This document shows, piece after piece, positions 501 through 36,247 of a stretch of DNA of 64,000 bases. The stretch lies in NCBI GenBank assembly GCA_010356995.1, contig ML996691.1, forward strand, positions 254,174 through 318,173, read 5' to 3'. The stretch comes from Trichodelitschia bisporula. Its lineage: Eukaryota. The number at the start of each line of letters is the position of its first letter. Positions within the stretch are counted from its first letter, which is position 1. The notes beneath the pieces are model-generated. The model saw only the letters and a list, made by a program, of their open reading frames with translations, did not search any database and had not been told where the DNA came from. Made by a program: the position numbers and the translations under genes.

Positions 501-705
501 CCAAGTTACGGGGTGTGAGCTATCTCATCGTTGATGAGAGGAGATGATTGGGAAACGACAGCTGGCGTGGATTGACCAGCGCCTTCGGCAAGTGTATCCT
601 CCCTCCTCCTCGCTCTTGGTGTAAAAAGCCGGAATGAACCCTTGGGTGGTGTGAATGTCATTCTGTGAGGTGATTTCTACCAACTACCTTCGGGGGCGGA
701 GAAGG
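501..705 (+). pseudogene. Decayed PIF1-family helicase fragment (Helitron-like)
   Basis: Joining frames gives KLRGVSYLIVDE-(frameshift)-MIGKRQLAWIDQRLRQVYP...RNEPLGGVNVIL*GDFYQLP, matching PIF1 motif II (IVDExSM) and motif III (GDFxQLP). It has two frameshifts and an in-frame TGA. Confidence 0.8.
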
Positions 706-13079: not shown

Positions 13080-14064
13080 AATGGCTTGGTCCGTTGAGAC
13101 CTGCTGCGCGACTTTCCCAACTCAAAAAAATAGGAAACCATTGAAAAGCCATTTTATAAAAGGTGTAACTAGATAATAGAAAATGCTGTGGACAAACATA
13201 GGTGCACTTAAGTGTTCTGCTTTCAGTGAATGATCAGCGTCTAATTGTCCTCTGGCTTACTCCTAGACTATCCATAGCAGCCAGTCGGCCGAGAGTCCGG
13301 TGTCGCAGAATAAGATGTCTCACCGCCGCTCCTAGGCATAGACATGACTTCAGGGTGCTTATTGGGGGCTGCGAGGATGGACTATATAGGAGAGTTCAAC
13401 TTTAGAAAGAGTCAGCAACCAGAAGCCCAGATCTACGGAGGCATGAACATAGACTCACCGCGACCCATTCAAGAGCAATGTGCATAACAACGATACAGCC
13501 TCTCCATCACCAGAAAACCTCAAGTGTGAATCTGCTGTTTTTTCGCTTTTCTATTCTAATGATGGTGCCACGTTCCAACTCACCAAGTCCCAGATCCCCA
13601 ATCACCCTCAATAGGCCAGCGCGAGCCAGCCCAAAGCAAGCCCAGGTTCAATAGTGCCTGGCTCATTATGGAGTGGCACTTGTCGGTAGGAATTCCGCAA
13701 TTCAAGCCCTCGTACCGATGAGCCCTAGCGACACGAGCAGCATCAAATCTATCAACTGCCCACACTTCTGAATGATCCGCCACACCTCAGATACTTAGGT
13801 CCACTTCTGCTCAGAGATGTCTCTTACCAACTAGCGTTAGCCAGTCAAATGATTGCTCCAAGTCCAGTTCAGATTCCATAGGGATAGGGGTGCCATGCAC
13901 TGATGTCGGTAAATGTGAAGACTGAAATCGAACCACCTCAAGCCATGGAGGCGTAGTAACGCCGTAACTCCTCTCTGCAGAATTCTCCACGCCTTGTCAC
14001 ACCCTTATCGGTCTGTAGTGACGAAGCACCCAAGCCGTTGAGTTCTGACAACACCTTAGCGTAG

Positions 14065-16120
14065 CTAAACAGCCACTTTAATCTCTGACCAGTCGTCCCC
14101 CGCGTCAGAGTCTGCAGACTCCGAGTAGACACTGTCAGCTTGGGCACGAGTACGCTTCTTGGCCTTGGTACGGACGGCCTTGACCGCACCAGCAGAAGTG
14201 TTGACAGCTGTGTTGTTAGAGGAGTTACCAGCAGACGACGGGCCAAACTTACACAACTCCTCCTTGCTGTGCGAATTCCGAAGGTGCTCAATCAGGAACT
14301 TGAGGATGGAAATGTCATCGCCGCCCTGCTCTTTCCAGAATTCCGCTCTCATAGTATCGTAGAGAACACGGCAGTCCACGAGTTCATAGGGCATATCGCG
14401 AAGTCGATGGGTCACCTCTTCCCATACGGCGTCGGACTCCGTCGAGTCCCCGACATTCGCCTTCCTCAGAACCCTAAGAATCGTTCTCAGGATGAGGTAT
14501 TTGTCGCCGGCGCTCATCCGGTTGACATTCGTTTTGGCTTGGGCCTGACGATTAATGGCGTCGTTGGATTTGTTGGCTGCTTGCTCGCCGTCGGTACCTT
14601 CGGAAGCCTCATGGGAAGCCTGAGCAGCTTTCCCTGCCTTGCTCAGCTTCTTCCACTTGTTGGAGCACTGGAGACGGCTGCGCCGGTTGCCCATGCGCTC
14701 GCTGATGATGTTCCAGTCCAGCTCGCGCACCGGATCGTAGGGTTCAGTCTCATCAGGATGATCCTCTTGGTGCTTGACGCGAAGCTTTCCCAGAATTTCG
14801 TGCACGATACCTCGGAACAACTCCACTTCCTCGGCCGTCCAGGCACCCTGATTTCTGCTTTCGCCACACTTCAGATAGTTCCGCCAACGGTCGCGACAGT
14901 CCTCAGGATGACGCTTGAGAAGTTCGCTAATGTCCTTCCACCTCCTGCCGTGCCGATCAAAGGCTTCGAGCAGCGCCTGGTCCTCCTCTTTAGTCCACTG
15001 ACCCCGCTTCCCGTAGTTATGGAACCGACGCCGGATGACACGCGTGGTCTGGACCTTGTTGCGGTTTGGAAGAACATTGACCGTCAGCTCATCGAACATG
15101 ATTTTCGCCGCTGCCGTGCGAGCGACGTCCTGGATCTTCGCGTTGAGTTCTTCCGTCGTAAGGTTGTGGGCAATCCGATAAGCCCGATATGCGTCATCCA
15201 GCTTAGCAAGCTCCTCGTCGGTGAAGCCGCCCTCTTTCGCAGTTTTGCCTCTACCTTCGCCAAGTCCCTTGGAGAAATTTCCACGGCCGCGCTTCCCGCT
15301 TTTGCTAGACGAAGCTGGGACCGTGCGATCTACGATCCCATCACTATCCACAGAGTCGCCGGAGGGAGAGCCGGGGGTGGTGGGAAGATCGGCGGTCGAA
15401 GGGTGCAAAACGGAATCAGCGGCGGGCTCATCAGGAGTCGCCGAGGCTGTAGCCGGCGCGGTAACAGGCGGAGATTGCACAACATTCTGTAGTGGTTGAT
15501 CCTCGACTTCAGGCTCGAACCGAGCCCGTTCGTCGTCGTGGTCCGCGGTGAGACGCTGGCGCTTGTTGGCACCGTCGCCGGAAGTAGGAGGGGAAGGAGC
15601 ACGAGTGCCGGTCCCCACGATGCTCGAAGTCTTGCTCCGCTTGCGCTTCTTCTTGGATTTCTTTGCTGCTGACTGGCCCTCACTGGTGCCAGAGCCGGAT
15701 AACGCGGCCTGTCCAGGCGCAGTGTGGTCCACACCATTCATGGCAGGCTCGATAGCATTTACGACGGTTTCGAGAGAATCGCACCCAGCATGTTGCTGAA
15801 AGGACTGGGGGCACATTTCGATTGGAGGGCCGCTCAAGGCGTTGCGCAGAACCGTGTCCCTCCTTTTCAGTTCAGGACTCATTGGGCTTGCCAAATCGGA
15901 AGTTAAAGGCTGCACACCCTCTTGGTAGTCATCGGCCGTCCGAGATGAGTGAGAAGGCCGCTCAGGCGCATTGCTGCCGTTCTTGAGGCTCTTATACCGA
16001 GTCGGCGTTGCATCTAGGAATTCGTTAGCGATGTTCGAAATGCTCGCATGCGACGGAGGATAAATCACCAGGAGACAGCATGCGAGACGGGCCCTCGGGT
16101 CTCGAAGGTGAGTTCCCCAT
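14065..16120 (-). CDS. Myb/SANT-repeat DNA-binding protein, Reb1/Nsi1/TTF-1-like, 666 aa
   Basis: Myb repeats GQWTKEEDQALL...WKDISELLKRHPEDCRDRWRNY and GAWTAEE...LDWNIISERMGNRRSRLQCSNKWKKL. The 5' exon 16120-16069 (MGNSPSRP...) is inferred from intron 16068-16014 (GTGATT...GCTAAC...CTAG), which keeps frame. Confidence 0.85.
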
Positions 16121-16552
16121 CCTCCAGGTATTCACGATTGTGGGGGAGAAGAGTTCGTGGGGCAATGGGCTGGGGGAGACATGCGCGACAGTTAGCGGGG
16201 AACGCGTAGGCAGAGTGTGGCGGCCTCAGCGCCACGTGCTATCTACCGCCAAGACGGCCCGAGTCCGGGTCTTCGGCCGTCAGGCTTCCGACCTTCTGCT
16301 TGTCACTTGCCAGTACTCCATTTATCTCTGTAACATTCGGTCGTTACATACCCTATGCGATATCGCACTACGAGTACGCACTGCTACATAGTAATTTAAT
16401 CTACACAGAGCCGAGAAGCCTCGCTAGCCTCGCACACCCAAACCAACAATCCAAAAATCCATCGCAACCCGCTAAAGCCACAACCGCGCCATGCACCCAA
16501 AATCGTAACCTATAAATCCCAGCATATACAGTATCCAAACCTCCCAGCCAAC

Positions 16553-19500
16553 CTACGACCCATAATCCGCGTCCTGTGTCCATCCCCTCCCCTTCCGCGT
16601 AACACTGGGAGCTTCTTCCTCAAGCCCATCTCCCTGCTCCTGCCCAAAAACATCATCGGGAAACTCCTCGTCAAACCAGCTCGGTCCAGCGACGCTCATA
16701 TCGACATCGCAATCCCCATCCCCTACGTTAGCCGACCACCCCCCATCCGCCTCTTCGCCAAACAACGATGCCCCACTGCCATCAACTCGGTCGACTTCGC
16801 CACTTACCCCGCTCCCGCTGCCTCCGCTGACATTCCGAACGGATACCGGACCCACCGTAGGCCCGCTGAATGGTGTAGCGTAGGCAAAGGGCGTGGTCCC
16901 GCGTTTCATCATGCCGCCGCGAGAGGCAGCGAAGGCGGCGCTGCCGACGCCTGTGCTCTGGCTTCCGACGGGGACGAAAAACGGACTCACCGGGCGACCC
17001 TGCTCTTCATCCTCAGGCTCAGCATCAGGTTCGGCATCGCCGCCCGCCTCCGCGTCCACTTCGCGACTCATCGATCTACGCGGAGTAAACGCTCCGAACC
17101 TCCGCCGCGCCGCAAGATAGGCCTCCTCAGCCCCCTCCTCAGCATCAATATCCTCAACCTCCTTCTCCTCTCCCCAAACTTGCTCCTTAGGCTCGCGCCT
17201 CTCGCCCTCGTCCCCGCTTTCGTCGTCACTTCGCGAGATTCGACGTCGCTTGCTTTTCCGACCAGCCTTGGCGCGCACAGACCCTACATCCACGTCACGC
17301 ACTCGAGCTTTGCCCTTCCCCCGTGCAGCAGCCATGTTACACTGCGCGGAGAGTGACTCAATGACCACGACGTCCTCGCTCGGACGCACTTTTGCGCGTG
17401 ACCGTGTGCGTGACGCAGGGCCAGGTGACGAAGCAGGCGCCTGCGCGGCGGGTGTGTGGGGAGGCAGCTCCGAGGTCGGGGTTATGGGATGCAGCTTAGG
17501 AGCTGAGTTATGCTTGTTCGGTGCGGGTACAGAATCCGGCTCTTTCGACCGGACGCTGAGACGCGAGTGAGTTGACTGCACCGATGTGAACGAGCTGAAT
17601 AGGCTTGAGGGCGGGGAGTCAAGGGAGGGAAAGTATGCCCAGCAGGGCTCCTTGGCATCCGCTTCTGGAACACCGGAGGGTGTGCCTATCTCTTGCGTGG
17701 CGGGAGTGAACCGTGGCAGTTCCCGCAGGCGCTGCCATGTCCAGCCGGGATGTTGCTTAGGTGGGCGATGGCAGGTCGCAGGCTGAATGTACGCCTCGGG
17801 GTGTGTGACGAAGAGGCGTTTCTTGCCACCAGGAGCACGCATCATGACGCCTGAGGCGAGAAAATCAGCGTTCCAGAGTGCGGGAGAGACCATTTCGGCA
17901 GGGGAGAGGAAGCGGAGGCGCGAGGACTTGTGTATTTTGCGGAGGGGGGCGAAGGGTCCATCGAGCGCAAGGAAGACGGAGGCTTTCATTTGGCTCTCGC
18001 GCAAAGAGGGTTGCGAGCTCTTGTGGAGGTCGAGGACGTCGATGAAGGCGCGGCGGACGGCATCTCGTACAGTCTTTGCACCGCCGCCGCGGAGAGTGAC
18101 TGTTCGCACGAAGCCGCGGCTTTGCAGACGGTGGTACACTGCGCCCTTAGGGCCGCAGGCCTTGGGCACAAGCCATGTGTTTCCCAGCGCGTGGTCTCCG
18201 GCCTCGGCCCACTCCTGGATTGCGCGTTCACTCCACACGCTCTCGTCATCCAACCGAAGAGGCGAAGGCCGCAGGGAGCTCTTGCTGGTCTTTTGTGGGC
18301 TCGCGTTCAACTGCAGTGCCGTGCGGGTCCAGTCATCGTCATCACGATCAGCCTCCTCGCCAGCGTCGCTGTCACTAGGTAGAGTAAAGACGCTTTCGTC
18401 ACCCATGCTGTTACGCGACCGGCGGAAAGGCAGATCTTCGGGCTTAAACCAGATGCCGCGCAGATCGCGCCCCCATGGGAGGAGAACGACTTCGATTTCC
18501 CAAGGCGCAGAGATTGACGGTCCAGCAACACTGTCGAGGTGTTCCACGCGTTCTTCAACACTTCGCAGGCGCGCTTCGTAGCCGGTGCGTTCAAGGAGGG
18601 TGAGGAAAGTGCCTTCGGTCCTGTCATCAGAGTCCGAAAGCCCTGGAAAGGAGTCATTGAGCAAGAGCGAGTCCTCCGTATCACGAGTCCACTTCCGGCC
18701 CTTTCTCCTTCGTCTCTTGCCGTCCTCAAGCAGCCCACCCACCAGCGTACGACCGTGATCATCAACTTTCTCCTCCAACTCCAGCACCTTCCCGTCCAGC
18801 ATGTCGATGCGCTCATTTATCTCCTCAACTGTAGCAGCGCTTACGATGACACTGCTAGTGAACGAGGTCGATTCCAACCCGTCCACCCGCGACGCCAAGG
18901 TTCGGACGACATCCGCCAGATCCGTCGAGCGTATATGTGCTGAAATCGTATTCAGAGCGCCGTGTAGCTTCTCAAGTATGCGAGGCAAATTCTGCGCAAC
19001 AGCAGGAGGAACCGTAACCGTAGTCTTATCGTCTGCATGGCCCAGTGCATTCACGAGTCCACCGACCTCGTGCACTAACGCCTCCAAACCACGAAACTCA
19101 GGCGTCGCACCCGCCAAGCTCGGCGTGGCCAGCTCAGTTGCACTCTGTGCGCAGTCTTCAATGACAATTGGCGCGTGTATTGAAGCACCCTCCGGAAGTG
19201 GATTGACTGTTTCGGTGGAAGGTACGGGCACAGGAAGTGCACGGCGGGCCTCCATCACACGCTGCATGAAGCCCTGGTCAGGACTCACTCGCCCAACGGG
19301 GATATAAGAGCTTCCGGTAGATGTATGCCGCGTAGATGGCATCTGAGAGTCGCGGTTTGCCTGTGCGATGAGATTGGCAAGATAGACATCGTCTGGAACC
19401 GTGGATGTCGTGCTTCCAGGACCAGGAGCCTTGGGAATTGATATGGTGAGGCCCAAGCCGTTATGTTCTTCAGATCGTGGAAGTTGCAGGTCCGTAGAGT

Positions 19501-20130
19501 TGAGAAGACACATGGAAGGGATAGGAGGGAGGTAGTCGGCTGTGTTGACTTCGGCTGTGGAGGTGGAACGGGCCGACTTTGCGAGGCTATCTGCGCGAGC
19601 GGATTTGGCTGGACGACCGTAAGCTCCATCCCAGCCAAACATCTCTCAAGGAGCATGCGATGTTGGAGTTTAAACGGGGAAAACTAACCTTGCGGATCGT
19701 TTCCGATGTTGTGTGATGTATCCTTCTCCGCCTGACTCACAATGCTGCGAGCTAGTGATTCGCGCGTAGAGATCGAATATCGACCACCCAGCAAGCTTGC
19801 ACCGATTGACGACGTCCGCTCGACCATATCATGATAGCACGCATGATGGCCACAGACACACCACGGGTTGCTGTCGCTGCTCGCTGCAGGTTTTACCCCA
19901 CTCGCCGACGCACTCCCACGTTGAGTGTACACTTCTGCGCTCCACCAGAAGCGTCTGCAACCACATGAAGGCGGCTTCGGGCCAGCATTCAAGTCGCGGA
20001 AGTTGCAGGCCCCACTGGGAAGCCCTCGCGCGATGTCATGGTTTCTTGAGGTTGCGGGAAGGGCGGTTGTGTTCCGTCTGTCGTTGCCGTTGCCATTTCC
20101 CAACCGCGTGGGGCGAGAATACGCTGCCAT
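16553..20130 (-). CDS. Conserved-looking hypothetical fungal protein, 1165 aa (N-terminal Cys/His cluster, coiled coil)
   Basis: Exon 1 is 20130-19689 (GACNF...CGCRRFW...CVCGHHACYH), followed by intron GTTAGT..GCTTAC..CAG and exon 2 at 19608-16553 in a matching phase. Globular blocks WEIEVVLLPWGRDLRGIW and PLRKIHKSSRLRFLSPAEM. Function unknown. Confidence 0.8.
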
Positions 20131-21568
20131 TGATGGCTAGTGCGCATGCCACCACTCGTGGAAGACAGACGATGGTTTACTGAGCCATGGGCGGTTCGGA
20201 TCTGAAGTCCAAGGCAAGAAGTCAGTCTCTGGACTCGAGATGGGAGGGGCATGTAGATGCAGACACGGACACAGATGGCCAGCGGACAGAGCTTACAAAA
20301 GAAAGTGCTGAAAGTTCGTCTTCGACGGGCGCTTAAGCTCGGTCACACAGTGCCAGCGCTGAACAAGTACAGACTGCGACAACCATACAACGTCGAGCGA
20401 TAGCGGGGTGCGCAACGTCAGGACGGTCGAAGCGTCAAGTCAATTGTTGTCGCAAGTGGCACTGGATCAAGCGCCCGTCGATAGGACACGGCAAGAAATA
20501 CCCAAATTCGAACGCACCAAGTCCAAAGCAATAAATATGCAAGGAAGAGAAGAAGCAGCAAAAAAAATGATGTTCGTATCTCAGTCGCTGCGGCCTCAGC
20601 GACAAGTCGACAACGACCGACCCCAGTTGGCGTCGGCGTGACTCCTCTCAAGTCGTACCCCTGCACACAGCAACCCGAGCTGGGCACGCTAACCCCAAGG
20701 GCGCAACGCACAGATCGTAGAATGACGCAGCGGCTCTGAATGGCATGGGTCTATGGATAGTAATTGGCTGAGCTTGGGGTTACCGGCTAACGGGAACGCA
20801 TCCGTCGGTGGGTTAGCCGTACGATCTGGCGGGGGGACGTGGGTTGTCGGGGGCGACCCCCGCGCGCTTGGGCGGTAGGCCGGGTCGCCCTACGATGCCT
20901 CGTTGCTGCTAACAACACCTTGGGACTGCGGTAGGACGCAAGAGATGCAACACGATAGAACAGAGGTGGAATTGCAAGTGACGGTGAGGCTAGACGGCGT
21001 GCCAGGCTGCCGCTACCTCTTTGCCTGCTTCTGTGAGAAGCAACAATGTCGAGGGTTGCTGCCTGTTGCTCCCCTTGTGGTTTTCAAGAGACTTGATTGG
21101 GGTCTCGGTTTGCGTTGGAACTTGCATCGTCAAGGAGAAGAGAGTGAAAAAGGGAGCGAAGTGGAAGATTATATGGCCTTTGTACAGAGGTGAGTATGTA
21201 CTGCATTGCTTGAACTGGGGGCATTCATTCTTCCATTATTGATATGGAGGACGCTAGGTCGTGTTCGTCTACGCTTCAGATACTCGAACAAGAGCAGCAA
21301 GCATAGGGATATTCAAGAAATTATAACCCATTTTCCCACACAATGCTCCGGCGGGACAGGTACAACTTTTAATATGCCCTTCAACCACTGTGAGGTGCTG
21401 CGGAGGTTAGCCTGGCTGGCGCTGGAGGTTGAGGCTTGAAAGCTTGAAACTCGGCCCCCAAGCAGTACACGTGAACCATTAAGGCCACCAGCCTGCGCGG
21501 GGTCGAACCTCAACGCAAATACGACTTCCGATGACGACGACACTGAAAGGAAGCTCCAACCACCAAAG

Positions 21569-23632
21569 ATGAGCAAAGAAGCAAGAGAGCGTTTGGCTAC
21601 CAAGTCTGTGCAGTTCCATTTGGACCATGTCATGCCGACATTTGACCGTCTGGGGAGTGCGATCAGAGCTCAAGCTCCAGCGTAAGACTTACTATCTATC
21701 CAGTAATAGGCGCTGATGAATATGCAACCCGCAGATCATGGAAGGCCGGCTTTTTGGACCAGAATTTCAAGCACAAGCGCTATCGAGATCGCCTTGGCAC
21801 AAACGAAAAGAACGTGAAGAAAATCAGCATCAAGTAACATTTCTAAGTTAATCTTTGCTTTCCCCTGTGCTAACACTCGCAGGGATGACTTGGCCTACAA
21901 GTACTCAGCTCTGCCAGAGAACAGTATCAGAGTTCTGACTGTCCTGCCCGGTTCTGGGAACTCTTCGATCGAGACCACATTGACCCCCCACTCGATCAAG
22001 GAGCTGCACGAGTTCGATGCACTGTCCTACACATGGGGGCTTGCTCCGCCTTCTCAAACGATCACCATCGATGGCAAGCTTCTCGCAGTTACCCTGAATC
22101 TAGGCAACGCACTTCGACAAATGCGGCAGGCAGAAAATCCGCGTCGCTTGTGGATAGATGCGATATGTATCAACCAGATGGACATGGATGAACGATCATA
22201 CCAAGTGACATTGATGAGAGAAGTATATATGGCCGCCTCTCTCGTTGTTGTGTGGATCGGCACTGAGACAGCGGACACCGTGCCAGCCTTCGATCTCATG
22301 CGGAAACTTGCCGAAGCAAAGGCAAGTCCAAATCTGCCTCAAAGACCCATTCTACCGCAAGATTTGGCGGCTTTGAACCTTCCTCCCAGCGATGACCCTT
22401 CCTGGGAATCGCTAGATACCATATACTGGCGGCCATGGTATACACGCGTCTGGATAGTACAGGAAATATCTTTGGCAAAGAAGGCAGTCGTGCTCTGCGG
22501 GTCTCAATCCATCGGATGGGCCGAATTCGGGGACCTTGCCGTTTTCCAAAGCCGACATCTAATGGGAAGATTCACCGGTGTGGACCCGGCCCGCCTCGAA
22601 TCCCTGGTGCGTATTTCGAACGAAATCAATCGAGAAGTCAAAGTCGAGCTCGGCAGACTCCTTTTCTACACCCGAAGCTTTCTGGCCACGAATCCCCGAG
22701 ATCATATCTATGCGCTCCTAGGCTTGAGCGAACTCCAGATTGTGCCGAACTACAAAGCCCCCGTGCGTGATGTTCTCGTGGAAGCGACTTCGGAGTTGCT
22801 GCGCGCAGCCGGGAATATTCATTTGCTGACAGGCGTCTCCGATTCTTTCTGGTCAGCCGTCGAAGGACTGCCAACTTGGGTCCCGGACTGGACCACTCCC
22901 GTCCGGGCACCAGAGTTGCTCACGGTCCTGACCAATCCGTATCCCAGGGCCACTGGAGAAACAACAGCGCAGTTCTCCATTGCGGGTGACGTACTGTCGA
23001 TGGAGGGGGCTGTCATCGACACGGTTGAAGACATAGCGTCTGCTCTCCACATTGTACACAACAAGGGCGGAATCGGTGCAAAACTGCTGGGCAAAGCAAC
23101 TTCGCAAGAGATCCTCGATATGGATAAGGCCAAGCGTCTGCTGAGCTGGGAGCGTGTAGCTCTTCGGTTAGCAACGTATCCAACCGGGGACACAGTCGAG
23201 ACAGTGTTGCATCAGACCTTGACTGCGGGACAGCGTCTAGGAGAACCCGACTATGACACTCCCGACGCGAGAAGTCAATGGTACGCCGCCTTTCGTTCTC
23301 GTTGGGTCCAGCCCTTTGAGAAATTCAAGTTTGAAGATATGTCGAGCGGTACATCGGACGACAACGCTGCGGTCGCCGCAGGATTTGACCAGGCATTGTG
23401 GAATTCATGTCTAGGACGACGGCTTTTTGTCACAAAGAAAGGGTACATGGGAATTGCGCCGTCATCGACAACACGTGGCGACCAGGTGGCATTATTTGCA
23501 GGAGGCGTGACGCCATACATCATCCGGAAGGTCAAGACTAGGTTTCGCTTCGTTGGAGACTGTTACGTGCATGGAATCATGCATGGGGAAGCACTTGATG
23601 CTAGCTCATTCGGAACTTTGGACCTTGTCTGA
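21569..23632 (+). CDS. HET-domain (HET-6-like) heterokaryon-incompatibility protein, 653 aa
   Basis: Exons 21569-21681, 21735-21833 and 21883-23632 are phase-consistent. HET motifs FDALSYTWG, LWIDAICINQ, ERSYQVTLMREVY, WYTRVWIVQE, ATNPRDHIYALLGL and LPTWVPDW. HET-6-type C-terminus GRRLFVTKKGYMG...GDCYVHGIMHGEA. Confidence 0.95.
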
Positions 23633-24964
23633 GCGAGCTGCCTCCTATCGCGCCAAACTATGCTGAAATCAGCAGCAGCAACTTCTCTGGCTTGCATTTC
23701 TCGTGCACCCAGATCACGTGACACGATTATGTAATGGTGAATTGTGGGATGAGCCGAGACGTCAAATCCAGGCATGCTACGCGCCTTAACTTTTTTCGAC
23801 CATGGCAGTCCTCCGTCGGCTTCTTGCGTTTCATGAATTGCAGCCTTTTGCCGAAGTACCCAGAAAGTGACCTCCTAGAATGCTTCTGGCATAATCTTGG
23901 TTAGCTATCAGCAAGCTGGCCAGCCAGCTACAGAGCTCACCCACTTCGCAACGCGCAAGAAGGATTGGATCAAACATACACCGACCGGCTCAATGATGAA
24001 CAGTACCCGAGAGTCTAGGATGCAAGCACATCATGTACGGATACCGAAAGATGCAACGGGAACGCACAAGTCCATTTCCGGACTTTGGCCAATGACTTGG
24101 ACATCTCGACATTGGCCATCCTCTTAAAGCACTTGAAACCTGCGTGTACGGGTGGAACAAGCAAATAGATGATCGCGGAATCTCTGGATACACCCACTAA
24201 ACGGGAGAACCAGGACCAGGCCTTCTCGCTTTGCAAACGCGCAGTTCTTGGAGCACGAGCGGCGGCACTCTGCATGGATCACTCCCTTTCGGTGGGCTAC
24301 TAAGCAACAGTTCCGCCGGTCGATTGAAGTATCTACCTCATTATCTCTCTTCTCTCCGTCAATGAAGCAACCGGGTGTGCTTGAAAGATCGGACCGGAAC
24401 GGCAGTCTGATGCCAAGATATATCAACCCGTGACCGCGCTTTACCCGATATGGCTTGTTTTACTCCGGGGGAGGCGAAGCCGTTACGGGTACCGCCGCAA
24501 AGCTCCAGGAACTGACTGGGCCGCTACCAGGCGTCCGTTTGGCGGCGACGGCTAGCCGCCCACGGCCAGATGAAGCACTGGGCGGCTAACGAAAAGTGAG
24601 CGTACCATATCGATGCTAAATGGCCGGTTGCATTTTTTTGTATCAGACAAGGCTGCCCTTGAGCCACGTCAGTCTGATATGGCCCTGCCGTCCGAGGCGT
24701 GGTCTAACTGGTCTCCTCAGTCGGGATGCGACATCGACGTCTGTCAACATACCCGTCTCCACCCTGCAAGTACTCGTAGATCTCAGGAGGGGAGTCATCG
24801 AGCTGCCTCCTAGCTGAGGCTAGCCGTACACCAGCCGGAATCCATTCACATCATCTTCGCCTTATCCCCTTCGATGTTTCTGTTCGGCTTCAGCCTTTGT
24901 CTTCTCATCCCTGGAAATATCTCGGCTTCATTGCAAACCCCTATCGAAGCGTCAAGTTACGGCC

Positions 24965-27900
24965 ATGGAGGCGTTGCAGTACCAAATCAACCACATCTTC
25001 TTGCCACCGAGGCTTCCTCAGCGAGCTGATGAGGATTCGGGTGAGGAGCATGAACTGGCTAAAACCGTTCGGGACGCCCTGCGGCGTTTTAACGACGAAT
25101 TTGAACTCTCCGCGGAACAACGGCCAAGAGTTCAGCGATGCCTCGACATGCTCAGTGCATTTGTCGAAACTTCTGCTGGATCAGGGCATATGGATGAGGG
25201 CATCCTCGAGAGGAAGCTTCTGGATCTGACCGATCATGGTTGGCATCACCCTCCAAGATCGATGAGCTATCACTAAAACACCTCACAGGTTCCCTTGTCC
25301 TTCACATCAAACACCAGAATGCAGGTCTTCTCCTGACTCGCATCGATAATGAACTCTTATTTGAAAGCTTCGAGCTTCTTGCTCAAAACAAAGATGTCAT
25401 GGCTTGCTTGGGGAGACTTCGTCGTCACTTCCCTGGACCTGCAGTGGCAATAAGCTATGACCGGCTTTTCGATGCTCCCTTTCGCAAGCATCTTATCAAC
25501 GTCCTCGTCGAACTGGATCAGAGAACTGTCTCTCACATGGTCCCTATCGTCAGGAAAGCGGGCAAGGACGTCAGCGAAATTCGCGATACAACGAAACCCA
25601 CCCTGGTGACCGAAATGATCATGGGCCTTTTACGGGGTTTGGGCCGCGTTGCGACGGTTGATCGAATTATCAAACATTCCCGGGAGCAAGTTTTGTGGGA
25701 CAATGTCAAAGTACCTTGGCACAGGTCTGCTGTATGGTTGTTGATTCGAGTTGCCCTGCAACTCTCTCTTGACCGTCACAGACTCGACTTGGTGGAGCAG
25801 AGCACATTGTACAAGGATTTTATCCTAGTCCTGCTTGCCTGCGTCTTGGAGAAGGCTTTCTTAAGCAAGAACCGTCCTCATGATGAAACCCTTTTTGTCA
25901 TGACAGAGAAGATATCCCGTCGTCTTACCAAACGGGAAAAGGCTGAAGGTGCCCCCGGGTTCAGTTTTGTGGCCAGCACGATGGACCGTGTTCAGTCTTT
26001 GCTCCACGGCCGATGGGACGAACAACAAAAGAAGGGTGCTTGCAACTTCGACCTGGCTAGTTCTACAGTCCAAGCCCTGGACTTTAGCGCGGACGCTCTG
26101 CTGTCAACAAACGACATGAAGCTCGGAAAGTACTTGGAGAAAATTACCTCCTGTGGCAAGTCATCGAACAGCAGTACTAGCGGAGATCGAGGCTTCCCGT
26201 TCCAGTCGAACGTCAGCGACCCAAATACCCTACCCTCTTGCAACTTCGGCGGTTCCGGTGAAGTTGTCCTGTTCCAACTGGCCGACTTCGAAGAGTGGGT
26301 TCGGCAGCATCTTGACGACTGGCTCTCAGGCAGACTGAACGACACAGCCACGTGTGAGCAGCTTGCGGACTGCATTTTCTCCTATCGGACGGCTGCTTCT
26401 CAGGCATACACTGGAAACCCCGAGTCATTGTCCATCATGTTTCTCACGATGATGTCACTTTGGGTTGCGTGCGACAAATCTGCCATCAGTATCCATCCCC
26501 TCATGCTTAATTATGGTACAGGCTTCCCCCAAGAGGCCTTCAACTCGCTTGTGCTTCCCAAAAAGTGCCAACTGAGGCAGTTGGGTTACGTTGAAGACCA
26601 TCTCTCCCGGCGCACGTCGCGCAAGTCGCGCAAGTCGCCACCATGGGTGATGCGGGACGGTGGCAGCATTGATAAGAGGGCCTTTCCAGTCGCTCACTTT
26701 GATGCTTTTCCTTTCTACCAGGGTCTTCGAACTAGGATCATGTGTGCTGCAGAGCGCGAGAAGCAAGCGAAAATCAAACAATTTTGGCGTGAGAAGCGCA
26801 AGCATTCCGATCTCCTTCAAGATTACAGCGCGGCCGATCACGAGTATTACTACGATCCGTGGGGGGACGAACGTGATTCCGGCAACTGCCGGAAGTGCTC
26901 TCTGAAAAAGTCGACTGATGAAATGCACATTGATGTGTTCGAACACCCGCTCCCAATGTGTCCAATCGAGGCAAAGGTCGTCATCTTTGAGCTTTGCCCT
27001 CCGCCCGCCTTCGTTGCATGGAGACATGTCACGCTTTCACTATTGTTTGAAAATTTCACTCTTGAGCAAACACCTTCAGATGATAAGTTGTACGGCATCG
27101 AGTATTTTCCACTTCTCGCAAAATTCCGTGCCGAGCATTGTACCTCAAAACTGGACACGACGTTCATCATCAAGTCACAGACCAAACCCTTCAAAATTTC
27201 CCATTACGCAAATATAGCTGTCAGTGAGGCAACGGAGCTCAACATTTGTGTCAATCACGGATGCCGCTATGACTTTTACGATACCGATTCGGGAACGGTC
27301 GTCCCGCAGTCATTTTCAGATCAATTTTGTTTGAGACCCATGTGCTCGTACGCACCCGACGCCGTCCCAGCCGCTCTGCGAAAATGGATCGAGGGCACTG
27401 GCCACAGTATGAATGACGTTGTTGCTGGGCAGTGTGACTGTCCAGATGCGATGTCATTGCGCGAATTTAAGGACTTCGGCCAGCTGCGTGCAGGTCTTCT
27501 GCTTCAGTGGCAGAACATTGCTGCCCAGCTCATGATCCCAGTCTTGAATATCAACAAGCAGGAGTCTGCATTCTTGTTTCTGCAAGCTGCAAACGAGGCA
27601 GGTCCAAGGAAGGTCGGAAGAAAAGGGAGCTCATATTTGCGGGATTCTCCCAAGTTACTGAACGAAGAACGCTTCGCCCAGGTTCTGCGCGAAGGCTTGA
27701 GCAAATCTCTGGCCAGGATCGAAGAGAACTGGGAAAACGACGTCGCCCTCTACCTTCTGCTCGGCATCACAACGAAATTGATTTCCTGTGGTCCAGCCGG
27801 TATTCAAGGGGATTGCTTGACTCTGCTTGCTCGAATTCGGGACATGTCGACAGCTTGGACGCAGAAGCTCCTGGAAAAGATGGGAGAAGAGAAGTCAAAC

Positions 27901-30900
27901 GAAGAAGTACACGCCTTGGGCCGGCGCGCCCTTATGATGGCTCTGATATGTCATGGGACCTTTGACATAGGGCCTGACCATCTCGAAGCTGTACTGGAAG
28001 ACCCGAGGCAAGCGGCTCTACTTCTCAGGTCAGCTATCATCATCTCGGACTATTCTTCGGCCCAAACCCTTCAAACCAGTAACCCGATTTTGACTATCCT
28101 CATCCATCGCTTCCACCGGCTTTCATACCAGGTGGTGTGTGCACTCAGCTCGAGAATCCGAGACATTCCCGATTCCGGTCTCCACCGAGCCGTCAAGAGC
28201 CAGTGGGAGGACTTCCCTTCTGAGGTGCTCTGGTCGGCCGAAGAGCCGCCATATTCCCATGTCTTGCTGGCAACGTCATATCTGGGCGACAATCCCCGCC
28301 ATCTCCAGTTCAATTTGCTCACAGGCAGCCTGCTAATCAATGGATCACCACTTTGTACGCTGCCCAACGATTTCCAGGCCCATGAAACCTATCAGAGGAT
28401 TTTTCCACATCAAATCATGAGAGTCGGGCCTTCGGGTATGACCGGGATGATTTTTTCGGCTACTACCCTTCACAGTGGACACGAAGTCCACTTTGGGATG
28501 TCCGAAGGCGAATTGATCGTCCGATCGCGAAAAGGATCAAAGACATATGAACTGGTTCCACACCAATATCTCCGAGGCGACTTTCCTAAGCTTCTGGTTT
28601 CGGAATACGCTCATTGGTTCGTCGAAGGGGAAAACTTATTAGAGTTTCGACCGTTGGAAAGAGTCTGGATCACGTCAGATGCATGCGAGTGGGACAAATC
28701 CAAAGGTTGGCTCTTCACGTACAACCTTCAAGGAGAGGCACGACTTGTGAACGGGTTTGAGCGGCCCTGCCTCGGCGTCGGCAGCGATACCTCTCAGCTC
28801 ATCTCGAAGATTTTGCGGCCGTTGGAAGAGGGTGCATTCATTCATCTTATTTTGGACGAAGCAAAGGGGAGTCTCAACATTGACCTTCCCCGGTTTCGGA
28901 TCTCCTTCGTGCTGGACTCTAAGAAAGACACAATCATGTCAACGAACTATCGGGGATACGCCATCGACCCGAACCAGGATGTTGGAACAGTCAACGGGCT
29001 TTCCAATAAGCTGATACTTTATGAAGCGTCAACTTCCAGTAGGCGGCCGTCAAGGGCAGTCTTGGTACCAGATGGATCCATCAAGTTTACCAAAGGGACT
29101 GTCGGGGATACTGCCACGATTGATTATGGCGATGAGCGACGTATTCAGCATCATTTTTTCCAGGTTGACACTCTTCTTGGTCAACTAAAGAGCGGTGGCG
29201 CCTTGCTGAGCAAGCTTTTCCTGATTCATCTGCATGCTGTCACATCCCACTGCCTCCCAGACAGGTTGACTCGCCGTACTGGCACGCAGGAAGCGCTCCG
29301 CTTATTAGACTCAGCGGCCATACGCTCCTTCCAGAGACTGCGAGAGGATGAAATCAAACTCCTCAACGAGATTGCAAAAATCAGCCCGCGTCGACGGTTT
29401 TACCCTAAAAATCTCCAGGACATGCAACGAACTCACTGGTCGAATCTTTCCTCCTTATCTCAGGACGATGCATTTGCGCGATTGGTTGGAAGTATCCTTA
29501 ACCACGCCAAAACCTGTGAGATGTTCTTCCCGGAGGACGAGCGGAAGAAGATTGATATTGAACATGAGTCGATTGAAGCACTGGTTGATCGCGAAATTAT
29601 CAGGATAGCAGGCTTCCGGGCACCTCAGTTCGGTGCGGAGCAATTCAGCACGAACAAAGATGAAGTCTATAATAGTCGGGAGCTCACATCATCTGACGAA
29701 GAGTTGCGGGTATATAGGTTGAGTCATTTTCTGGATGCTCAACAGTCCGCTGCGCTCCTGGAGACTCCTTCTCTGAACATCCGTCAAGTTCTTGTCGGCC
29801 TCTTCGGAAAATGTTCAGTTGTAGGACCATTGTCCAACTCAAGCATCCCCGAACTTGTCTTTGGCGTTGACTGGCTCGTGGCATCGCAAAGAAATGAGAG
29901 GCTTAGCAAATTCTGGTGCTTGATCCAAACAACGCTCTCCAACACCGATCCTTGGACGGACAGGTACAAGTTCATGACATTTTTTGCGGGGTTGATATTC
30001 TCGGAGAACGCCGATTTCCAGGTCATCCAGTTTCTCCTCGCCTTCTTACTCTTTCCAGATATGCACGTCTTTCGACCCCCGGCCAGTCGCTTGTTTTCCC
30101 TTCAGGAAGGTGACAAACCCGTAAAGTGGAAGATCGTCGATGTTATAAAGAAGCACAAACTCCCCTTTGAAGGTTCAGACAGCTCCGAGGCACATCTCAA
30201 CTCTTTACCCCATGAATCGTACCAGGCACTTCAGCGAAGGAGGAGACGAGTCTACAATGACAAGGTTGACGAAGTCTCTGGAGAGTTTGCTGACCACCTG
30301 ATCAGTCAGTGGCCGTGTCCTTCTCCCGATTCGCCTCCAAGTCAGTGGAATGGATACCTGAATGTTGGAGATTGCATGAATGACATTCGCCCACTATTCA
30401 TTGCATGGCATGACAACAGGGGGTTTTACGCCTACCTGAAGAGAGCAGTCAGGGTGCTCCTAGACTTGCCGGTTTTCGACGGCAACAGGATTAACTACGT
30501 TATGTCCTTCGAGCCGACATTTCACACGCCGGCGAGGCGATATATTGGCGTTGCCGATATCTTTTCTCAGGATGCCCCGGACGTAAAGGATGTCAAAGAG
30601 AACAGGTTCCATGACCTCTGGGACAGCAAGAACACTGTCGAAATCCAGCCTTCTATGTTGGCCCTCCTGGGAAAGCTCGAGCTCCTCAGCCAAGTTGAGC
30701 ATGAGCGAGACTACACGAAGGAGCTGAAAGAGAGTCTACGGGAGCTGCAAACCAGTTTCAGTGACCCAGTTCTGACCAGTGAAGACGAAAGACCCGCATT
30801 CGGTACTATGGAGGAGATGTTTGTCCAGTATCGCCACAGCTGCCTGACAGAAGTGAACCGGATCGACAGCACTTTACGCCGCGTTTTGACTCGAGGACCG

Positions 30901-33900
30901 CTCGACCTGTGTCCGGGAATCGCAGCATGCTCAACAGTGTGGCCAATGGTAACCCCTATTTTGCTGCTGGAGCAACTTTCCAGGTCCAGATGGCACAAGC
31001 TCAGCGAAGGGTGGAAGCGCTGCATTGTCAACTATGCCCTCGCCATCACCCACTTCCAGCGAGCTGAGCGATTGCTCAAAGCTTGCGGCAACGTCAACGA
31101 GTTGATTAAGGAGATTGTCAATGTTGGGCACATGAACTGGGAGCCTATTGAATTCCCGGAATACCTGATCCTGGAAGTCGAAAACGCAATCACCATCCGC
31201 GCCGTGCAGGAGGATATTGCATTGCAGATGCGGAGACCTGATACCAGCAACGCTGTGATGCAACTCAACATGGGCCAGGGCAAGTCGACGGTGATTGTGC
31301 CTATGGTTGCTGCAGCTCTTGCAGACGATGGGAAGCTCGTCAGAATCATCGTTGCAAAACCACAGTCGAAGCAAATGCTTCACATGCTGATTAGCAAGTT
31401 GGGCGGCTTGATGAACCGGCGCGTGTACCATTTACCATTCTCTCGGTCTCTCAAGCTCCGGAAGAGTGATGCAGAACGAATCCGCAAGCTTTGTGAGGAG
31501 TGCAAAAGCGAAGGTGGCGTTCTACTCGTGCAGCCCGAGCACATCCTTTCGTTCAGGTTGATGGCCTTGGAATCCACCATTGCCGGAAGGCGAGAGTTAG
31601 GAGAAATGCTTTTGCAAACGCAGCACTTCTTTGACACCGATTCAAGAGATATCGTGGACGAGAGCGACGAAAATTTCAGTGTCAAGTTCGAGCTCATCTA
31701 CACCATGGGCACTCAAACAGCCATTGGCTTCAGCCCCAATCGCTGGGTGCTGATCCAAAGGGTACTCGACGTGATGTTGAAAGTCGCTCCCGCCGTGGAT
31801 GAACAATATCCGGACTCCATAGAGTTCGGCCAGCCACAGGTCGGAGGCTTTCCACGAACACGGCTTCTCAAATATGATGCCGGCCCGGCCCTCATGGATG
31901 CAATATCTCATACGATATGCGAAAAGGGAATGCAAGGCTTTTCCGTTGTCTGCCACAGGGAGCCAGGTTTTCGCCAGGCCATCAAGGAGTATATTTCAAA
32001 GCATGCTCCCTCCCCCGAGACACTTGCGATGGTTGAAGATCCCACTCACGGCTTCTATAACGAAAGCTCGAGCCAAACCTTGCTCCTCCTCAGAGGCTTG
32101 ATCGCATGCGGAGTATTGACCTTTGCTTTTCAGCAGAAGAGGTGGAGGGTCAATTATGGCCTCGATGGCAGTCGCAAACCCGCGACCCGGCTAGCCGTTC
32201 CATACCGCGCAAAAGACTCTCCAGCACCCAGGGCTGAGTTCAGTCATCCCGATGTGGTCATCGTGTTGACTTGTTTGAGTTACTACTATGGGGGGTTACA
32301 AGACGAAGAGCTGTTCACCGCATTTGAGTACCTGTTGATATCGGACCAAGCAGATGATGAATATGGCCTCTGGGTAAAGGCAGCTGGAGATCTCCCAGCC
32401 AACTTTTGCCATCTAACTGGAATCAATCTCAAGGACCGCACCCAATGCGTGGACAAAATATTCCCCTCACTGCGATTTGTCAAGCCCGTAATTGACTTTT
32501 ACTTGTCAAACATGGTGTTCTCCAAGGAGATGAGGGAGTTCCCTCACAAGCTCTCTGCATCGGGTTGGGATATTGCAGCAGTCAAGACACACCCTACAAC
32601 GGCATTCAGCGGCACCAACGACTCAAAATACCACCTGCCTCTCACAATATCGCACCTTGATCTTCAAGACCAAAAGCACACGAATGCGTTGGTCCTGAAC
32701 CATTTACACCAACCAGAGAATTCAGTCAAGGAACTCCATCCCTGCGCCTACTCGGATACGTCCAAATCCGTGGCCAACGTACTTCTGCACACCGTGGTCG
32801 AATCAAACCCTGAAATTCAGGTCATTCTTGATGTCGGAGCTCAGATTCTGGAACTTGGAAACGAAGATGTCGCGCGGACCTGGCTCAGCATGGTCTCGCC
32901 GGATAAGGCTGACGCTGCCATATTCTTCAATGACAACGACGAGATGTGCGCTCTGAGCCGGAACGGAATGTCCGAGTCATTTTTCAGCTCGCCGTACTCG
33001 AGGCATATCACATCGTGCCTCATCTTCCTGGACCAGGCTCACACCCGCGGGACCGACCTTCGACTACCGGACCACTACCGGGCCGCCGTGACTTTGGGGC
33101 CAAATCTCCCGAAAGACCAACTGGTTCAAGCATGCATGCGAATGAGGAAGCTTGGGCACGGTCAGTCTGTCGTATTCCTTGTATCTCCGGAGATAAGAGC
33201 CAAAATTCTCAAAGTGGGGGAGCTCCCGCCGGACCATGCGATCCAGGTGGTAGATGTGATGCTCTGGGCGGTTAGCGAGACATGGCAAGAGTGCCACAAG
33301 AATATGCCACTTTGGGCTACCCAAGGTATCCGGTATCAGAAGCAAGATGTTGGGTGGTCCCGTCTCAGCGATCCGGACTTAGACAAGGCCGAGGAAATCG
33401 AGGCATACTTCCTCGAGCCGGAGTGCCAGACTCTGGACGAACGGTACCGGCCATCTAGCGAAAAGCGGCAAGGCCTTCTCCACGACGAGTTGTGCGATGA
33501 GAGCCTAGGCGCGAAAAGGGTCGAGTTGGAGAGCATTTTGAAGAGATGTGAGGATTTTGGCGTTACTTCTTTCCAGTCCGCGACGTTGCAGGAAGAGCAG
33601 GAGCGTGAGCTCTCTCCTGAGAAAGAGATGGAACGGCAGATTGAGAAGCCAATGCGTCTTGAGCCATCTGTTCCGAGCCTACATCCGGATGTCATCGAGT
33701 TTGTTCGAACTGGCATACTGAATAGGGTTGGCTTTGGATTCGTCAATGCCTTTACCAGTGAAGCGTTCGCTCACGCAAGCTTTGAGTCACTACCCGCCAT
33801 CGAGCAGTTTCCGCCCAACTTGAAAGTCACTCGCGACTTTCTCACAACTGTGAATCCTCCGGCGGTGTCCTTCATTTCGGACCAGTACCAAAAGCCCGTG

Positions 33901-34485
33901 CAATGGATTCTCACCAGCTGTCAGCGTGATCGCTGGGGCATTGATGAGGTGGAAAATGTGGTCATCATCAGTTCCTGGGAGGCCAACGAGCTGATACCAG
34001 ACATCAAGACCTACGGAAAGGTGCATATTCATATGTACACCCCGCGTCCGAGTCTCGCCTTTCAATCCCTCGAGGATTTAACGCTCTATGCCATCCCCGC
34101 TCTACCACTGACCTGGTATCTTCCGCGCTACTTTGTGGTACTTCTCAACCTCTTCGCCGGGCAGTGTTACCTGAGGTCATATCTGGAGTACGTTAAGCTG
34201 TGCAAGTTTTTGGGGCTGATGCATCAACCACCTGATGATAGTATCACGATGAATGTGGGCGCCGATGGGTTCGCCGGGCAGACTGCAGAGAACCCACGGT
34301 GTGTGTTCACGGAAAGCCCTGTGCCGTTTTTGAAGAAGCTTCTGTTGATGAGAAGGGATTATCAGGGGATGGAGAGGACGGATTTGGGAAGAATTTTGGA
34401 GGGGGATTTGCTGCGGCCCGAAGATTTTGAGGGAAGGGATGGGGCTGACTGGACGGCTGGCTTAACGTTGCGTTCTCGGGTTTGA
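24965..34485 (+). CDS. Giant P-loop ATPase of the fungal DUF6606-DUF3638-DUF3645 type, 3156 aa (a family often auto-annotated 'ubiquitinyl hydrolase 1')
   Basis: Exon 1 is 24965-25238 (NHIFLPPRLPQ), then intron GTTGGC..CTAAA..CAG, then exon 2 at 25289-34485 with no stop. Family motifs HIKHQNAGLLL, PWHRSAVWLLIRVALQ, TSHCLPDRLTRRTGTQEAL, QLNMGQGKST, DIVDESDENF, LAVPYRAKDSPAPRAEFSHPDV, LDQAHTRGTDL and QACMRMRKLG. Confidence 0.9.
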
Positions 34486-34557
34486 TGAAGTTTTTGCTCC
34501 ATAGACGAATTGTACGAGGGCCCGGCGGGTGGGAGTTGGAATGGAACGGTAAGTTAC

Positions 34558-34639
34558 TCATGGTATTTGGTCATGATGTTTTGGTCATGAGGTTCTGGTC
34601 ATGGTGTTTTGGTCATGGTGTTTGGTCGTGGTGTTTTGG
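34558..34639. repeat. Minisatellite, 6 imperfect copies of a 13-14 bp unit (TCATGGTGTTTTGG)
   Basis: Read directly: tcatggtatttgg tcatgatgttttgg tcatgaggttctgg tcatggtgttttgg tcatggtgtttgg tcgtggtgttttgg. Confidence 0.9.
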
Positions 34640-34925
34640 GGTTATTGTTTAGAAATGCTTGTTCAATCCACTGCTAGAAGGCATCATGTGTTCGAGAGAG
34701 TAATCACAAATAAGAATCTGCGTTCGGATTCAATCCCGCAAAGAACCAACTGCTATCGTGAGCTGCATGTTCTTCGAGACGAGAAGACCATGTCACAACC
34801 GCAAACCCGCTGGCCTAGACAAGGGGCAACAAGCCTCAAGCACAACACACCAACAGACACAGGAGCCGTAAATGAGATGCATTAACCGCCGTCTAAGATA
34901 CGATGCCACTATCCCATGCCCAAGC

Positions 34926-36247
34926 CTACTCAAGTAACGACGCCTGGTTGGTGTACAGCACATCGACAACATTACTCAGCTTCTCAATCGTCTCCAGCGC
35001 AGCATCATACCCGCGGTCCCGCTCCGCCTCATCATACACAATCAGACACCCAGCACCCTGGTCCAGTACGCCAATGATCACCTTATCCAGAATCATCTGG
35101 CTCAGCTTGCGCTCCACCTGCTGCGTATCCAGTCCAACCATCTTGGCAATGTGTGCAATCTCCACGCGGCTGAAGGGCTCGATCACCTTGATCAGATTCT
35201 GTTCCAGCATGGCGTCGTACAGCCGCCGCAGGTGGTTGGCAATGAAGCGATCGCTCCCGAGCTCGTAGCGGAAGTCGCCGAGCGCCTTTTCGTACTCCTC
35301 CAGACTGCGGTTTGAGTGTGCGCGCGCGACTGCCTTGATCGCTTCCAGTCCCTTGCCCGCGTACCGCAGCGCGTGTTTGGAGCCCAGCAGGTTCGCCACG
35401 TCGTCGCCCAGGTTCAGCATCACTTTACACAGCAGCATGTACTGCAGCGCTGACGTGGCCTTGCTCACCTCGTCCAGAGAGTGGTATCCTTCCAGCGCCT
35501 CGATGAAGTACGAGAATGCCGTGCTGAAGTCTTGGTCCTCGGCGTGTAGCATTCCACTCTGCATGTCCAGCCCCGCCTGCAACATAGGGGGCGTGTAGAC
35601 AGAGGCGGCGGACGTGCGGGCAGATGTGAGCGCGGCGCGGCCTTTGGGAATGTTGCCGAGAGCATGGTAGACGCGGGATTCTAGGAGTTGCACTTCCACG
35701 AGCCGCATCTTGTCGTCCAGTCGCTTGAGCTCGGAGAGCAGCCCGTTGATCAGCGTCAGCGCATCGTAATATGACTGCTTGCCCATGTAAAGCACCACCA
35801 GGCGGGTCTCGAGCTCCTGCCGCAGGAAGCCACGGCGCTCCTTGATGGCCCATTCGATGCAGGATTTTGTGACGGCGATGTGGGTCTCTGTGGTGCCGGG
35901 GATGGTGTGGAAGAGGTCAAGCAGCTGGCGAACTGGCCGTGTAAGTGACGCACTCTACACCCTTCCAGAAGTAATAGCCTACCTAGCTTCGCCGTCTTTG
36001 CTTTCGCAAATGTTGACAGCGCAGTGCGCGACTGGCGTATCAAATCGGCGAGGTCATCGACGCGCTTCTGGTCGCGGAACAGCTCGCCGAGTCCACCAAG
36101 CGCAGCCTCAAAGACCTTCATCGCAGCATCGCTCTGACCTGGCGAAGCGGTCAAGACATCTTTGTAGATGGCTTCCGCCTTCGCGGGCTCCTTCTTCGCC
36201 AGCTTCTGGGCCTGTTCTATCCGCTGTGCATCCTCGGGAACGGCCAT
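34926..36247 (-). CDS. RPN6: 26S proteasome lid subunit Rpn6 (PCI domain), 423 aa
   Basis: Exons 36247-35983 and 35932-34926. Motifs FAKAKTAKLVRQLLD, ELKRLDDK, LVEVQLLESRVYHAL, LDMQSG and NLIKVIEPFSRVEIAHIAKMVGLDTQQVERKLSQMILDK. Confidence 0.97.

Follow-up and report, generated by a model that had tools for sequence, protein, structure and literature searches.

We analyzed a 64,000-nucleotide window of contig ML996691.1 of Trichodelitschia bisporula (positions 254,174 to 318,173 of the forward strand), in which a HET-6-like gene encoding 653 amino acids (aa) lies 5' of a gene for a giant protein with the Pfam families DUF6606, DUF3638, and DUF3645, both intact and on the same strand. We consider it likely that the HET gene and the giant gene make up one functional HET-giant module, which is probably a defense-type module and previously undescribed. 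We think that the parts work together because one folded module, the first 440 residues of the giant (hereafter the N-module), has undergone a complementary exchange between the two families that has long been kept. The original prediction had coupled the HET gene to the giant, and this linkage is now supported by fusions of the N-module to HET in three fungal classes, by giants that lack exactly that module, and by one spliced RNA contig over both genes in T. bisporula. The layout that it described, two intact co-oriented genes about 1.3 kb apart, holds position for position, with a spacing of 1,332 bp, and the 3,156-aa length of the giant is borne out by a two-exon gene model. The features of the pair are as follows.

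21569..23632, plus strand: HET-6-like gene, 653 aa; exons 21569-21681, 21735-21833, and 21883-23632; introns 21682-21734 and 21834-21882 are absent from the RNA contigs
22013..22465, plus strand: HET domain (Pfam PF06985), residues 115-265 of the public protein P0123
23633..24964, plus strand: transcribed spacer without a spliced gene of its own (RNA contig without a joint there; no long open reading frame [ORF])
24965..34485, plus strand: giant gene, 3,156 aa; exon 1 24965-25238, 50-nucleotide intron 25239-25288 (GT..AG), exon 2 25289-34485; the intron is skipped by the RNA contigs
24965..26334, plus strand: N-module (residues 1-440), made up of DUF6606 and a helical extension and HET-fused in relatives (from Pfam DUF6606 and the boundaries of the fusions and of the N-module-less, or deltaN, giants)
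30916..33558, plus strand: ATPase motor region as modeled, residues 1968-2848 (predicted local distance difference test [pLDDT] 81.4, predicted template modeling score [pTM] 0.73)
31129..31794, plus strand: DUF3638, predicted first RecA-like lobe (Pfam, 319 bits)
31267..31290, plus strand: Walker A motif NMGQGKST (from sequence; G, G, K, and S invariant in 19 giants)
31648..31671, plus strand: Walker B/DExD-type box DIVDESDE (from sequence; invariant in 19 giants)
32170..32271, plus strand: DUF3645 (Pfam, 64 bits)
21525..34802, plus strand: stretch on one spliced RNA contig per run, comprising the HET gene, the spacer, and the giant gene (two runs, one sample)

Exchange of the N-module between giants and HET proteins

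We surveyed 80 giant loci from metagenomes, which reduced to 59 nonredundant clusters with 465 kb of nongiant flank, and scanned the 341 flank ORFs of at least 150 aa with Pfam. Two loci contained single ORFs with DUF6606 followed by HET (L061:6505-8997, minus strand, and L054:2394-4841, minus strand). Compared with each other, these fusions share 41% identity across 828 columns; compared with the window's giant, of which they match residues 94-434 or 94-436, they show 36% identity. The exon upstream of each fusion ORF bears the giant's N-terminal motif. Beside each fusion lies a divergent giant ORF, which begins at residue 437 (L061, ~730 bp away) or at residue 446 (L054), and no second DUF6606 was found in either locus. 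From these alignments, L061 and L054 are read as a clean split of the giant, with the N-module carried by the HET protein.

Public proteins gave further cases. In Acephala macrosclerotiorum, P0253 aligns with giant residues 2-448 and then continues into HET, and P0044 aligns with residues 440-3142, with 46% identity to the window's giant; P0044 and P0253 are each on a contig of 376,724 bp. Lepidopterella palustris has the deltaN giant P0014 alongside a partial N-module protein, P0338, which is identical over 370 aa to P0431, a 1,025-aa protein with DUF6606 and HET. Both domains were present in 9 of 30 relatives of the fusion, and a profile search of 1.84 billion representatives yielded 12 Pfam-confirmed DUF6606-HET fusions among the best 150. 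The named hosts are Cercophora, Gaeumannomyces (two fusion paralogues per genome), Magnaporthiopsis, Diaporthe (where the fusion is annotated as two separate models), Acephala, and the Dothideomycete Aaosphaeria arxii. Altogether, the fusions span Sordariomycetes, Leotiomycetes, and Dothideomycetes, and the fusion proteins are 38 to 45% identical across these classes.

We then compared the parts that follow the N-module. In type A fusions (Sordariomycetes, L054, and L061), the N-module is followed by a Cys-rich linker and HET, and this C-terminal part is 40 to 42% identical over ~390 aa to kinase-HET proteins (Pkinase, Cys-rich linker, and HET; ~1,100 to 1,760 aa). The linker and HET are thus common to both, with the place of the kinase domain taken by the giant's N-module; the window's HET protein differs from the kinase-HET proteins in being HET-6-like, which is another subfamily. 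In type B fusions (Acephala, Aaosphaeria, Lepidopterella/P0431, and P0377), the N-module is followed by a whole HET-6-like protein, which aligns with the window's HET protein over 402 to 421 aa (E values of 1e-20 to 1e-26). The C-terminal parts of the two types share only 36- to 42-aa matches, and therefore two HET subfamilies have been coupled to the N-module. Over its whole length, the HET protein within type B has the same architecture as the one encoded in the window. As side observations, the kinase-HET layout was found in 5 of the 5 proteins tested (P0283, P0284, P0289, P0292, and P0349), and such proteins dominate the profile matches behind the fusions. P0308 from Mytilinidion resinicola is a stand-alone N-module of 458 aa without HET and groups with the type B fusions.

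The window's giant belongs next to these split systems. Its six nearest relatives (P0003, P0044, P0014, P0033, P0010, and P0062) all begin aligning at residue 440-446 and have low-complexity extensions in the N-module's place (26 residues only in P0044); an apparent DUF6606 in the N terminus of P0003 was rejected as a low-complexity artifact seen with filters off. In an IQ-TREE phylogeny of the motor, the window's giant falls in a clade with 8 of the 9 deltaN giants (support, 100/99). In the N-module tree, a single clade (support, 88) unites the 15 detached N-modules, namely 14 HET-fused ones and the stand-alone P0308; its sister is the window's N-module (support, 86), and the L015/L020/L022 group is the next one out (support, 95). 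The highest identity of the window's N-module is 42%, to P0431. Both trees place the window's giant with the split systems.

The two proteins and their expression

The product of the HET gene is 100% identical to P0123, a public protein of 653 aa named "HET-domain-containing protein [Trichodelitschia bisporula]." P0123 matches the full Pfam HET profile PF06985 (positions 1-146) with 110 bits, for a cutoff of 22.5, and has all 16 columns that are invariant in an alignment of 53 HET proteins, P0123 itself being one row; these columns include S119, Y120, W161, D163, Q169, R259, W261, Q264, and E265. Its precomputed domain list has PF06985.18 with PF26639.1 behind it, a HET-6-like architecture, and our own Pfam scan gave no PF26639. 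We also considered the 75-residue N-terminal extension of P0123 as a mimic of the giant's N-terminal "HhFLPP" motif and rejected it (DUF6606 profile, -2.6 bits). HET, a relative of the TIR domain, suffices to kill fungal cells. The available text of PMC10197012 describes cell death induced by other HET domains when active, calls HET genes "mysterious players," and mentions partners for only a handful of them.

The giant is a full member of its family, with PF20255, PF12340, and PF12359 in order and an end-to-end alignment with 18 other full-length giants, to which it is 36 to 47% identical. DUF6606 is recognized in both exons (51.7 bits in exon 1 and 165 bits in exon 2), besides the DUF3638 (319 bits) and DUF3645 (64 bits) matches. 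The overall identity is 36 to 48% to giants of four Pezizomycotina classes, and many columns are invariant among the 19 aligned giants. Relatives numbered 1,795 in one search, the top match being 63% identical in the motor, and no HET domain was present among the 120 matches listed of these 1,795. Among public proteins of 1,665 to 5,299 aa, none matches the window's giant at 100%, whereas its HET neighbor has such a match; the giant gene is probably missing or split in public annotation. In a sequence search of the PDB, the giant alone gave one match at an E value of 0.89, and a 19-sequence profile gave none. The protein has three recognizable parts: the 440-residue N-module, a long body (~1,500 residues, the first part helical), and a SecA/superfamily 2 (SF2)-type motor. 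The Pfam scan showed no NACHT, NB-ARC, or WD/ANK/TPR family in either the HET protein or the giant, and the original prediction was in that sense correct in calling the system independent of NOD-like receptors (NLRs).

Two other giants from the survey are worth recording. Locus L076 has two DUF3638 giants tail to tail on one contig (559-10036, plus strand, and 10825-16279, minus strand). The giant L057:9518-19087 (plus strand) has 54% best-segment identity to the window's giant, which is the joint highest, with L002, among the fetched loci; it is broken up into five ORFs of at least 400 codons, is interrupted by an in-frame stop at 11447-11449, lacks an ATG before the N-terminal motif, and may be a pseudogene or an intron-rich gene.

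We modeled the fold of the N-module on the first 598 residues of L009, a 34%-identical relative with an intron-free N terminus (pLDDT, 87). Residues 9-344 of the model superpose on Legionella AnkD (Z score of 13.5 over 247 aligned residues) and AnkH (Z score of 12.3 over 254 aligned residues), the next match reaching only 7.2, and the Foldseek probability for AnkD/AnkH is ~1. By this model, the N-module is predicted to have the fold of the cysteine-protease-like and cap domains that are found in AnkD/LegA15 and AnkH (PDB 7ew8, 7kj6, 7xql, and 6mca). It differs from them in its sequence (4 to 10% identity) and in being without ankyrin repeats. The available text of PMC6712400 describes a clan-CE-like His-Asp-Cys site in AnkH, and that of PMC9757750 records that LegA15/AnkD has been termed an atypical GTPase. 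The AnkH triad has no clear counterpart in the N-module. The candidate catalytic columns of the N-module hold N in 40/40, Q in 36/40, and H in 26/40 sequences, and the candidate Cys column has Cys (16 of 41 sequences), Thr (15), Ala (5), and Ser (3); the window's giant has H97, Q101, N102, and C131 at these positions. Since the candidate Cys column is mixed, catalysis by the N-module is only putative. A complex prediction of N-module residues 93-440 with HET protein residues 76-653 scored 0.00 and was run without controls, and it speaks neither for nor against binding.

The motor model (residues 1968-2848) found SecA as its best Foldseek match (E value of 2e-8, template modeling score of 0.36 to 0.49), followed by the helicases Dicer-2, DinG/XPD, MDA5/RIG-I, and UvrB (E values of 1e-5 to 1e-4). 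In total, 106 PDB chains matched at an E value of ≤0.001, and the 50 listed are mostly SecA and SF2 helicases. The giant's motor is thereby modeled as two RecA-like lobes of the SecA/SF2 type. Like SecA and the SF2 helicases, it combines such lobes with a Walker A motif (GQGKS) and a DESDE motif; unlike them, it is embedded in a 3,156-aa protein, and the giant has no sequence-level match to any PDB chain.

Transcription of the pair was examined in two public runs of one sample, labeled "RNA?," in which 97% of the words sampled from the locus are present. We took these runs as RNA because their contigs skip three GT..AG introns. The introns skipped are exactly 21682-21734, 21834-21882, and 25239-25288, which confirms all three that had been predicted, and the HET and giant gene models are therefore right. 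One contig per run spans the two genes: record 5 of X1 extends over 21525-35500 and record 8 of X2 over 21585-34802, both with joints at the three introns. Upstream of 21500, the two runs gave only short, low-depth contigs. The HET gene and the giant gene are thus both expressed, and the spacer between them is transcribed.

Readings of the HET-giant linkage

We propose that the N-module would serve as an adaptor between the motor and HET, so that the giant either controls HET or works with it. T. bisporula has the unsplit form, in which the giant carries the N-module and one transcribed stretch also encodes HET as a protein of its own; in the sister lineages, the N-module would have moved onto the HET protein, leaving a separate gene for the remaining giant. 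If the giant sensed a trigger, its nucleotide state might change and thereby set HET free or bring HET molecules into clusters, after which HET would carry out the killing of the cell. The analysis itself shows how the genes are built, that they are expressed, the folds, the complementary split and fusion, and how the clades relate; that the two proteins touch, that a trigger exists, which partner controls the other, and that the outcome is cell death are steps that we infer. Likewise, we infer the role in immunity or allorecognition and the assignment of the giant as sensor and of HET as executioner, both of which the original prediction had suggested. More tentatively, the giants of this clade may form a new class of fungal immune-type receptors or switches that does not belong to the signal transduction ATPases with numerous domains (STAND), with a SecA/SF2 motor controlling HET through a transferable, protease-like adaptor of 440 residues that can sit on either partner and with T. 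bisporula showing the unsplit, cotranscribed form.

The original prediction had also asked whether HET genes are enriched near giants. Of the 59 nonredundant loci, 5 (L019, L020, L053, L054, and L061) have at least one HET gene no more than 10 kb from the giant, where ~0.8 to 1.6 HET genes would be expected in the 465 kb of flank from the HET densities in the genomes of N. crassa and P. anserina. An excess is present, but it is modest and depends on borrowed densities, and we regard it as suggestive. For L020, an unsplit giant of the L015/L020/L022 group, the HET genes are 1.6 kb (25.7 bits) and 8.9 kb downstream. A candidate for a sixth HET neighbor, L066:15802-17745, was left uncounted, as its 21.7 bits are below the cutoff of 22.5. 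For HET frequency inside versus outside the clade of the window's giant, the numbers are too small for any difference to be claimed. Protein kinases occur in the flanks of 4 of the 59 giant clusters.

Some neighbors of individual giants are noted here for their own sake. Locus L035 has a Pkinase_fungal gene (23292-25382, minus strand) downstream of its giant and, ~1 kb upstream of that giant, a ZNFX1-like 1,999-codon ORF (2582-8578, minus strand) that combines AAA_11/AAA_12 helicase domains with an RZ-type zinc finger. The L019 contig, with a fungal-type giant and HET genes, also carries genes for an LpxA-like hexapeptide acyltransferase and for LpxC (1-786, minus strand, and 1708-2700, plus strand).

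Alternatively, the HET gene and the giant gene may be unrelated neighbors, in which case the shared RNA contig would result from read-through or overlapping untranslated regions and the fusions seen elsewhere would be uninformative for an unfused pair. We consider this rather unlikely, and a number of observations nevertheless weigh against a functional link. HET genes are numerous (69 loci in N. crassa and 125 in P. anserina, according to the available text of PMC10197012 and PMC4540973) and cluster in genomes (available text of PMC4540973), and the giants are multicopy. No HET gene was found in the available flank of 54 of the 59 giant loci, where the neighbors are mostly housekeeping genes or transposon remains, and the enrichment estimate takes its HET densities from two other species. 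Compared with the HET parts of the type B proteins, the window's HET protein is only ~25% identical and therefore not an orthologue of them; apart from P0123 itself, its best public relative is only 38% identical, and the Pfam profile scan found no DUF6606 in it. The window pair is co-oriented with HET upstream, whereas the pairs of L054 and L061 are divergent. As for the trees, the key branches of the N-module tree have supports of 86 to 88 only, and the branching order inside the motor clade is not resolved. A contig spanning both genes is no proof of a single mRNA, and the two runs, made on the same sample, are not independent. Finally, the motor is 55 to 63% identical across Leotiomycetes, Eurotiomycetes, Dothideomycetes, and Sordariomycetes, unlike a fast-evolving receptor. 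Against chance proximity stands the finding that, in two independent trees, the window's giant is closer than any other unsplit giant to precisely the group that has its N-module on HET. Moreover, the type B fusions bear a HET-6-like protein of the window gene's architecture, and L020, an unsplit giant of the same clade, is also near HET genes.

Two further explanations accept a link and give it another meaning. In a guard/guardee arrangement, which would be a special case of the linkage, the giant would be a conserved machine monitored by HET, and the N-module-HET fusions would be integrated decoys, as in plant NLRs with integrated domains (NLR-IDs). The strong conservation of the giant, in its motor and across its 1,795 relatives, and its many housekeeping-like neighborhoods would suit such a role, as would the use of the N-module's protease-like fold by bacterial effectors. 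We find it improbable, however, since the giant has lost the N-module wherever HET has it, as expected of a split protein, whereas a decoy would coexist with an intact target. The pair could also be a classical heterokaryon-incompatibility locus of the het-6/un-24 or het-c/pin-c type, with coadapted and highly polymorphic alleles. A HET gene tightly linked to a partner does match the known het loci (as presented in the available text of PMC10197012), and the window's HET protein has no close orthologue, its next best match being the 38% relative mentioned above. Nevertheless, an allorecognition role is given for only 5 of the 125 P. anserina HET genes in the available text of PMC10197012. The giant is, in addition, well conserved and not hypervariable, and we hold such a locus to be very improbable.

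A HET-giant module would have parallels among known systems. The two-gene HET incompatibility loci, namely het-6/un-24, het-c/pin-c, and vic6/pix6 of C. parasitica, resemble it in having a HET gene, the presumed death effector, tightly linked to a partner, and vic6/pix6 and un-24 are established pairings with HET genes. The available text of PMC10197012 lists tol, pin-c, het-6, and het-e as HET genes of known incompatibility systems. Here, in contrast to these loci, the partner is a 3,156-aa SecA/SF2-type ATPase, and the link comes from domain transfer and a shared RNA contig, not from genetics. NLR-type systems are similar in that they pair a death effector with a large NTPase, in one chain or in neighboring genes, and in that receptor and effector have an adaptor element in common. 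They differ in that the window pair is without NACHT/NB-ARC and WD/ANK/TPR repeats, in that its NTPase is a two-lobed SF2/SecA-type motor, and in that the shared element is a folded module of 440 residues instead of a short amyloid motif. A HET effector with an NTPase partner is already known from NLRs and two-gene het loci; new are the giant of SF2/SecA type and the transferable, protease-like adaptor.

In the literature searched, with supplements left unopened, DUF6606 is unmentioned, and DUF3638 and DUF3645 appear in domain lists only, with no functional study. With respect to that literature, the HET association and the detachable N-module of the DUF6606-DUF3638-DUF3645 giants are first described here. 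Few genes of filamentous fungi are as numerous and as poorly understood as the HET genes, and a recurrent complementary domain exchange now links them to a family of ~3,000-residue giants, with giant residues 1-440 as the likely interface. If the proposal is true, fungi would have an effector-plus-NTPase architecture that is built on a helicase/SecA-type motor in place of a STAND NTPase. This would widen the catalogue of eukaryotic cell-death control and give both families their first functional context.

Surroundings of the pair

The genes around the pair are ordinary ones: a GH47 mannosidase, a RED-like protein, a Myb factor, and a 1,030-codon ORF on one side and Rpn6 and Sec24 on the other. 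The G+C content is 0.505 to 0.535 across ~20 to 35 kb of the window, against 0.55 to 0.61 in most of the flanks. At third codon positions (GC3), it is 0.565 in the HET gene and 0.599 in the giant gene, compared to 0.77 in Rpn6 (larger reading frame), 0.76 in GH47, 0.66 to 0.73 in Sec24, and 0.62 to 0.63 in the Myb gene and the 1,030-codon ORF. The lower share of G/C-ending codons relative to Rpn6 and Sec24, which the original prediction had judged by eye, is real, but the dip is only mild. As the Myb gene and its like are nearly as low, the codon difference alone marks no island, and the accessory island that had been derived from it is not borne out.

Three smaller features of the window complete the description. 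An assembly gap of 45 N lies at 55975-56019. The 1,030-codon ORF (16556-19645, minus strand) is directly upstream of the HET gene and is without a Pfam family. At 20916-21395, low-depth RNA contigs, one of them with a 68-nucleotide GT..AG intron (21188-21255) and a variant joint, reveal a small unannotated transcript.

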